Positions 63,254-64,000 of a stretch of DNA of 64,000 nucleotides are shown here, one piece after another (position 1 is the first letter of the stretch; each line of letters begins with the position of its first letter). The translations under genes and the position numbers were made by a program. The stretch lies in NCBI RefSeq assembly GCF_016026235.1, contig NZ_CP065613.1. One strand, given 5' to 3'. Origin of the DNA: Escherichia coli (GTDB lineage Bacteria; Pseudomonadota; Gammaproteobacteria; Enterobacterales; Enterobacteriaceae). The notes under the pieces were generated by a model that did no database searches, was not told where the DNA came from, and saw only the letters and a program-made list of their open reading frames with translations.

Positions 63254-63648
63254 GGGTGTTCTACCGCAGGGGCGGGGAATTCTAAGTGATATCCATCATC
63301 GCATCCAGTGCGCCCGGTTTATCCCCGCTGATGCGGGGAACACAATGACTACTGCTTTCGAAATTTATAGTGCGGCGGTTTATCCCCGCTGGCGCGGGGA
63401 ACACAGGACTGTTTTATGTTGCCGGTACAGCTCCAGCGGTTTATCCCCGCTGGCGCGGGGAACACGAATTTGGGGTGATGCAGCGTCATCAGTCGGCCGG
63501 TTTATCCCCGCTGATGCGGGGAACACCAGCGTCAGGCGTGAAATCTCACCGTCGTTGCCGGTTTATCCCTGCTGGCGCGGGGAACACCTTTAGGCAAGGG
63601 GATCCCCTGCCAGCTATGGCGGTTTATCCCCGCTGGCGCGGGGAACAC
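63254..63648 (-). CRISPR. Type I-E CRISPR array: 7 repeats of 29 nt (the iap-proximal one degenerate) and 6 spacers of 32 nt
   Basis: Repeats at 63254, 63315, 63376, 63437, 63498, 63559, 63620; minus-strand consensus GTGTTCCCCGCGCCAGCGGGGATAAACCG. Confidence 0.95.
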
Positions 63649-63744
63649 ACTAAGCATACATATCTGTTTTTAAACAAATTTATTCCACATCAACAATCTA
63701 CCAACTAAATTCAAACATTTCCTTATTTTTAAAGAACACATAAC
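63649..63744 (-). promoter_or_regulatory. AT-rich CRISPR leader between the last repeat and the cas2 stop
   Basis: About 96 nt of AT-rich sequence next to the best-conserved repeat. Confidence 0.7.
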
Positions 63745-64000
63745 CTATTGATTATCAACAGGAAGAAAAGAAACCAAACGTAACCCATCCAAATCCACCG
63801 GAATACGTCTGTTTTCTCCCCAGGTCTGAAATTCAAAACCCGACTCGGTATTGGTCGCCCAGGCCATCACCACATTTCCGCAACCAGCCAGTTGGGTAAT
63901 TTGCTGCCAGATCATCTCCCGAATACGTTTTGATGTATCACCAACATACACACCGGCACGCACTTCCAGTAGCCAGATTGCGAGCCGTCCACGTAAGCGC
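63745..64000 (-). CDS. cas2: CRISPR-associated endoribonuclease Cas2, type I-E (3' part; the 5' end lies beyond the window)
   Basis: ...[75 protein letters not shown]. Confidence 0.9.

Follow-up and report, generated by a model that had tools for sequence, protein, structure and literature searches.

The array adjacent to iap was the first CRISPR array ever described. In K-12 MG1655, this locus, CRISPR-I (cas-E2, L2), lies between iap and cas2 and contains 13 spacers in a 29/32-nt architecture, together with a degenerate terminal repeat. The leader types L1 and L2 are linked to the cas variants E1 and E2, respectively (Almendros et al. 2014, PMC3903273), and strains with cas-E2, K-12 among them, belong for the most part to group A (PMC3903273). 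As the same study places E2 mainly in group A, O55:H7 would be an E1 strain. The O55:H7/O157:H7-type cas-E1/L1 locus, represented here by DEC5D, contains an operon annotated as intact, including a cas7e of 351 aa and a cas3 of 899 aa. The most extensive degradation of I-E cas genes is found in Shigella, in which the repeat number drops as the cas genes decay (Touchon & Rocha 2010, PMC2886076). These degraded loci (PMC2886076; minor arrangements in PMC3903273) combine a short array, nonsense and frameshifted cas genes, and adjacent insertion sequences (IS).

The array analysed here is situated at the end of a 64,000-nt stretch of Escherichia coli DNA (hereafter, the window), and is a known, ordinary type I-E CRISPR-I (CRISPR2.1) array of E. 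coli/Shigella. It shares with K-12 MG1655 the location between iap and cas2, the 29/32-nt architecture, the degenerate terminal repeat, spacers S1 (31/32) and S5 (32/32), and the CTGATG and CCCT repeats around S5. Compared with K-12, the repeat consensus differs by 1 nt, six spacers are present instead of 13, and the leader is 70% identical. S5 directly follows S1 in K-12, whereas S2–S4 are located between them in the window. Furthermore, the leader-side repeats of K-12 end in AACTC and those of the window in AACAC, and Cas2 has 94 aa in K-12 (E2 variant) and 97 aa in the lineage of the window (E1 variant). The leader (96/96) and Cas2e (100%) are identical to those of DEC5D. The two loci further agree in their AACAC-type repeats, in S1, in the degenerate repeat, and in a second repeat of the CTGATG type; however, every spacer except S1 differs, and the lineage of the window carries a cas7e nonsense codon (Q206*), a cas3 frameshift, and ISEc60 in place of the intact DEC5D operon. 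The degraded Shigella loci resemble the present one in the short array, the nonsense and frameshifted cas genes, and the adjacent IS, and also in the IS-mediated loss of array and operon in a sister strain.

Architecture of the array

A repeat search detects a single repeat family of six copies with a start-to-start spacing of exactly 61 nt, and parsing of the sequence places the starts of these 29-nt repeats at 63315, 63376, 63437, 63498, 63559, and 63620. The consensus is CGGTTTATCCCCGCTGGCGCGGGGAACAC on the plus strand and GTGTTCCCCGCGCCAGCGGGGATAAACCG on the minus (crRNA) strand. Two kinds of variants exist: CTGATG replaces CTGGCG in the repeats at 63315 and 63498, and CCCC becomes CCCT in the repeat at 63559, the order from iap being AT, GC, GC, AT, T, GC. 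Six different 32-nt spacers, numbered S1 to S6 from the iap side, lie between the repeats. The features are as follows.

62196–63233, plus strand: iap, alkaline phosphatase isozyme conversion aminopeptidase (345-aa ORF; NCBIfam NF007568, 702 bits; named iap in RefSeq relatives)
63254–63282, minus strand: degenerate terminal repeat, leader-distal (19/29; −5.3 kcal/mol)
63283–63314, minus strand: spacer S1, oldest, species-wide anchor (4240/5426 complete E. coli genomes)
63315–63343, minus strand: loop-variant repeat, RNA loop AUCA for GCCA (stem intact, −14.4 kcal/mol)
63344–63375, minus strand: spacer S2, lineage-specific (unmatched in complete E. coli genomes, phages, plasmids, and IMG/VR)
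63376–63404, minus strand: consensus repeat (parse)
63405–63436, minus strand: spacer S3, lineage-specific (database searches)
63437–63465, minus strand: consensus repeat (parse)
63466–63497, minus strand: spacer S4, lineage-specific (database searches)
63498–63526, minus strand: loop-variant repeat, second copy (the identical variant precedes S5 in K-12)
63527–63558, minus strand: spacer S5 (32/32 to the second spacer of K-12 MG1655)
63559–63587, minus strand: repeat with C-to-T change (RNA G18 to A), one stem pair lost (−9.0 kcal/mol)
63588–63619, minus strand: spacer S6, newest, leader-adjacent, lineage-specific (parse and database searches)
63620–63648, minus strand: consensus repeat nearest the leader (parse)
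63649–63744, minus strand: leader, 96 nt, AT-rich, L1 type (75% A+T; 96/96 to O55:H7 DEC5D)
63745–64000, minus strand: 3′ part of cas2e, C-terminal 84 codons and stop, the gene running past the window (TIGR01873)

The degenerate unit at 63254–63282, GGGTGTTCTACCGCAGGGGCGGGGAATTC, matches the consensus in register at 19 of 29 positions, with a binomial probability of 7e-6 for at least 19 matches at one fixed register. When the repeat consensus is compared along the window, this score is reached at only 2 of 126,344 other positions. The same degenerate terminal unit is also kept in K-12, O55:H7, and other strains. Upstream of it lies iap, the conserved flank of the CRISPR-I locus, with its stop codon at 63231–63233. 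On the opposite side, the minus-strand frame at the window edge (63745–63999) matches the TIGR01873 equivalog with 108 bits against a cutoff of 33. The locus thus presents the anatomy expected of a type I-E array, namely at least three regular repeats of about 29 nt with unique spacers of about 32 nt, an AT-rich leader and, at the far end, a degenerate repeat, and a position between iap and the cas2e of the I-E operon.

This anatomy largely bears out the preliminary description. Its seven repeats at a 61-nt period, including a degenerate first one, correspond to six conserved copies plus the 19/29 unit; its six spacer strings agree letter for letter with the parse; and the variants that it placed in repeats 2 and 5 (CTGATG) and in repeat 6 (CCCC to CCCT) are found there. 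The assignment to a type I-E array with GTGTTCC-type repeats is supported by the structure, the repeat homology, and the neighbouring cas2e. The proposed order also holds, with the oldest end at iap and, on the far side, a leader of 75% A+T before the 3′ end of cas2 (TIGR01873 match). The gap between iap and the array, given as 21 nt, is in fact 20 nt (63234–63253).

Repeat folding and leader

The RNA of the consensus repeat adopts a 7-bp stem capped by a GCCA loop (−15.2 kcal/mol, z = −3.2). Like repeats of the I-E family, it has the stem-loop on the 3′ side and the AUAAACCG tail, and it matches the K-12 repeat at 28 of 29 positions; the K-12 repeat, which differs by that 1 nt, gives the same fold. 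The GC-to-AT variant changes the tetraloop (AUCA) and leaves the stem untouched, with hardly any loss of stability (−14.4 kcal/mol). In the C-to-T variant, a C–G stem pair becomes a C–A mismatch, which weakens the fold to −9.0 kcal/mol, compared with −15.2 kcal/mol for the consensus. The degenerate terminal repeat, at −5.3 kcal/mol, hardly folds. The full stem is kept in five of the six good repeats.

If the array works like its characterised E. coli homologue, transcription would start at the cas2-side leader and run along the minus strand, with Cas6e cleaving at the foot of every repeat hairpin. Each of the resulting 61-nt crRNAs, built of the AUAAACCG 5′ handle, one 32-nt spacer, and a hairpin at the 3′ end, would guide Cascade and Cas3 to matching DNA, while new spacers would be added at the leader end. 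From the known mechanism of Cas6e, the crRNAs of S6 and S5 would have a weakened processing site in common, and the crRNA of S1 would be formed without a proper 3′ hairpin.

The leader (63649–63744) contains 75% A+T, compared with 47% in the whole window. A simple scan of the leader with the sigma-70 consensus detects no promoter-like site, and the IHF consensus WATCAANNNNTTR is matched in the leader with two mismatches at best. A terminator-like hairpin, CCTGTTGATAATCAATAGG, with a T-rich tail is located at 63744–63762 on the minus strand, overlapping the cas2 stop at the start of the leader; this hairpin may mark the end of the cas operon transcript.

Relatives and the cas/leader variant

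No full-length, high-identity copy of the array exists among the complete RefSeq E. coli genomes. The nearest complete RefSeq record is E. coli FDAARGOS_943, which is approximately 99.9% identical over the whole window and 100% identical over the 5.2 kb upstream of the array. Closer relatives of the array were found by an exact-sequence look-up of the Iap protein among NCBI assemblies, which yielded five related assemblies (L004, L005, L007, L008, and L009). L007 (GCA_900449985.1, contig UGFA01000002.1) shows 0 mismatches to the window over positions 52196–64000 (11.8 kb), and L008 shows two mismatches.

The leader matches that of O55:H7 DEC5D at 96 of 96 positions and that of K-12 at 67 of 96. 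In addition, the full-length Cas2e of L007 (97 aa) is 100% identical to RefSeq WP_000063176.1, and Cas2e is likewise identical (100%) to the O55:H7 protein. Judging from these two elements, the array is of the cas-E1/L1 variant, because leader and Cas2e match O55:H7 and are distinct from those of K-12, which is E2.

Spacer distribution and array history

The six spacers differ strongly in their distribution. Of 5426 complete E. coli genomes, 4240 contain S1, and K-12, O55:H7, TUM13936, and the plasmid pIOMTU792 have it with 0–3 mismatches. S1 and S5 have a median of one site per genome in E. coli chromosomes, and this site is the CRISPR-I locus in all 30 matches listed. S5 is the second spacer of K-12, and its flanking repeats are also held in common, with CTGATG towards iap and CCCT towards the leader; among the matches listed, S5 directly adjoins S1 in K-12-type genomes, with a span of 92 bp. 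S2, S3, S4, and S6 have no match in the 5426 complete E. coli genomes, and all four are present in L004, L007, L008, and L009, public assemblies with an identical Iap protein. These four full-array assemblies contain the same six spacers. The fifth assembly, L005, keeps S1, S2, and S6, with S3–S5 absent. No different leader-proximal spacer is found in the related assemblies compared.

The array looks chimeric: four lineage-specific spacers are combined with the ancient anchor S1 and a K-12-type unit made up of S5 and its two variant repeats. The order of the repeat variants (AT, GC, GC, AT, T, GC) is hard to obtain by polar addition, because each new repeat copies the one nearest to the leader. 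Such an order would best be explained by recombination between repeats, and strictly polar addition at the leader end fits it poorly. The module-exchange model (PMC3903273) agrees with repeat-mediated recombination. Such recombination would either have joined two arrays or have removed S2–S4 from K-12-type arrays between the two CTGATG repeats. The S2–S4 block, bracketed by two copies of the rare CTGATG repeat, may represent a non-polar gain via recombination between the repeats of two different arrays rather than by acquisition at the leader.

In K-12, the repeat after S5 (L012 positions 2763–2791) combines CCCT with an L2-type AACTC end, and the corresponding repeat in the window (63559–63587) combines CCCT with AACAC. 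From its sequence, the K-12 repeat looks like a recombination junction at which the cas-E2/L2 module joined an older array.

Search for spacer targets

The six spacers give 0 matches to the INPHARED phages (blastn, E up to 10). In PLSDB, no protospacer is found; the four matches all concern S1 and all lie inside CRISPR arrays, three of them in chromosomes filed as plasmids and one in the IncHI2A plasmid pIOMTU792. In IMG/VR, exact scans in which every sixth spacer position was set to N, as these bases are unpaired in Cascade, return nothing for any spacer. Accordingly, no protospacer next to an AAG/AWG PAM is detected in INPHARED, PLSDB, or IMG/VR, and there is hence no PAM context to describe. 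A literature search with the spacer strings found no paper. PMC10910852 describes E. coli spacers as usually having no targets; spacers without matches are normal for E. coli and say little about activity.

The plasmid pIOMTU792 (L014, NZ_LC542972.1), a 293-kb conjugative IncHI2A plasmid, holds a copy of the CRISPR-I locus at 1913–6029. This segment contains a chromosomal-type iap, a CRISPR array of 10 repeats, and cas2e-cas1e-cas6e-cas5e.

S6 contains the 10-nt palindrome GGGGATCCCC. S6 also has the 9-mer GGGATCCCC in common with the terminus of ISEc60 (CTGAGGGATCCCCAG), which is probably a coincidence. The idea that S6 targets the neighbouring ISEc60 was rejected, as only this 9-mer is shared and no BLAST match is obtained.

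The cas operon and its loss in relatives

The cas operon lies outside the window, and its lesions were read in L007, whose identity to the window across 11.8 kb is strong evidence, though no proof, of one and the same genome; the annotated intact operon of O55:H7 DEC5D served as the reference for comparison. In L007, cas2, cas1, cas6e, cas5e, casB, and casA are full-length ORFs, with Cas1 (306 aa) and Cas2 (97 aa) being 99.7–100% identical to the O55:H7 proteins. The cas7e gene aligns over all 351 codons, and codon 206 is changed from CAG to TAG (Q206*), a nonsense codon common to all five related assemblies. The cas3 gene of L007 has an 11-bp deletion after nt 1000 that causes a frameshift, and cas3 is still intact in L005. 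An uninterrupted cas3-casA-casB-cas7e-cas5e-cas6e-cas1-cas2 operon is thus not present in L007, in which six genes are intact and two are broken.

Upstream of cas3, the IS4-like ISEc60 starts at L007 position 20283, 182 bp from the cas3 start, and homology to O55:H7 stops at this point. In FDAARGOS_943, whose flanks are 99.9% identical, an ISEc60 end directly adjoins the position equivalent to 63284 of the window, two bases into S1. Array, leader, and the whole cas operon are absent from this strain, corresponding to a 9.2-kb deletion adjacent to ISEc60. The ISEc60 ends of FDAARGOS_943 and L007 are 100% identical over 757 bp (L003 19286 and L007 20283, respectively). The loss in FDAARGOS_943 is attributed to an IS-adjacent deletion, because the same IS end lies upstream of cas3 in the lineage of the window.

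Losses in the lineage thus form a stepwise series, from the cas7e nonsense codon through the cas3 frameshift and spacer loss by recombination between repeats to whole-locus deletion next to an IS. These losses match the published Shigella-type decay of cas genes.

Other differences in the window

The rpoS gene in the window, on the minus strand, contains a nonsense codon at 52627–52629 (CGA to TGA, R180*), whereas the near-identical L008 has CGA at codon 180. Other relatives seem to carry different rpoS lesions: the gene is called at 298 aa in L004 and L009, is split in L005, and is annotated as frameshifted in FDAARGOS_943. This pattern points to several independent losses of RpoS within the lineage.

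Compared with FDAARGOS_943, the window has four structural differences, at approximately 1405–1418, 17596–17786, 30143–30218, and 47522–47525. The window is without the IS1A near csrA/tRNA-Ser and the IS5 inside a TIM-barrel gene that FDAARGOS_943 carries. It has about 97 extra bases in the hypF–norW region, apparently a difference in repeat copies, and about 80 extra bases where hycC of FDAARGOS_943 is annotated as truncated.

Discussion

The preliminary description also proposed a search of the spacers, a placement of the strain, and an examination of the integrity of the cas operon. These were carried out: no phage or plasmid target is detected for any spacer; S1 is species-wide, S5 is K-12-type, and S2, S3, S4, and S6 are lineage-specific; and in the window-identical assembly L007, the operon is not intact, owing to cas7e Q206* and the cas3 frameshift. 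Taken together, the locus is, with high probability, a chromosomal E1/L1 type I-E CRISPR-I array of an E. coli/Shigella-clade strain, apparently chimeric in composition and with broken interference, most likely an inert, slowly eroding relic of past encounters rather than a working defence. The array is most likely inert in view of the cas7e stop and the cas3 frameshift read in L007 and the IS upstream; the anatomy, the homology, the state of the cas genes in L007, and the lack of targets are observed, and we infer transcription, processing, and inactivity alike. The intact leader and cas6e would be the route by which crRNAs might still be produced, which is unlikely, and suppression of the cas7e nonsense codon, or readthrough at it, is conceivable in principle.

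That the repeats are not CRISPR at all, and represent an intergenic REP/BIME element or a tandem duplication, has practically no probability. The region is unflagged by two annotation tools: Tandem Repeats Finder reports nothing over 62000–64000, as expected for 61-nt units of which more than half is unique spacer, and Rfam 15 (E up to 1) gives no CRISPR-DR family, with only a sub-threshold chance match to Chlorobi-1 over one repeat. However, the exact 61-nt period, the 29-nt repeats with unique 32-nt spacers, the 28/29 identity to the K-12 I-E repeat, the adjoining leader and cas2e, and the annotation of the homologous region as CRISPR in RefSeq refute such a reading on both anatomy and homology. 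A fully functional type I-E immunity that protects the strain, if only once H-NS repression is lifted, would be in keeping with the intact repeats, leader, cas2, cas1, cas6e, cas5e, casB, and casA, and with the full stem in five of the six good repeats. It is nevertheless very improbable, as it conflicts with the Q206* stop in cas7e, common to all five relatives, and with the 11-bp cas3 frameshift in L007; moreover, the relatives differ by deletions only, without any spacer gain, and no spacer targets were found.

A locus that only records, in which the attack on DNA is dead and the leader, Cas1, and Cas2 still insert spacers, would be in keeping with cas1 and cas2, which are full length and 99.7–100% identical to those of O55:H7, and with the leader and first repeat, neither of which differs from its O55:H7 counterpart. 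Nonetheless, four full-array assemblies hold the same six spacers, and L005 and FDAARGOS_943 show losses only. Primed adaptation, furthermore, requires Cascade and Cas3. The cas operons of E. coli are normally silenced by H-NS, according to a passage of PMC2886076 that cites Pul et al. 2010, which also speaks against continued recording, and we consider it improbable. An inert, eroding relic is thus the preferred reading of the array.

The diversity of these arrays, the two cas/leader variants, and the decay in Shigella-like lineages have already been published, and the present locus adds little beyond annotation. Spacers S2, S3, S4, and S6 are diagnostic for the lineage and can serve as a strain-typing marker. 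Meanwhile, the locus is one more example of the stepwise loss of CRISPR-Cas.
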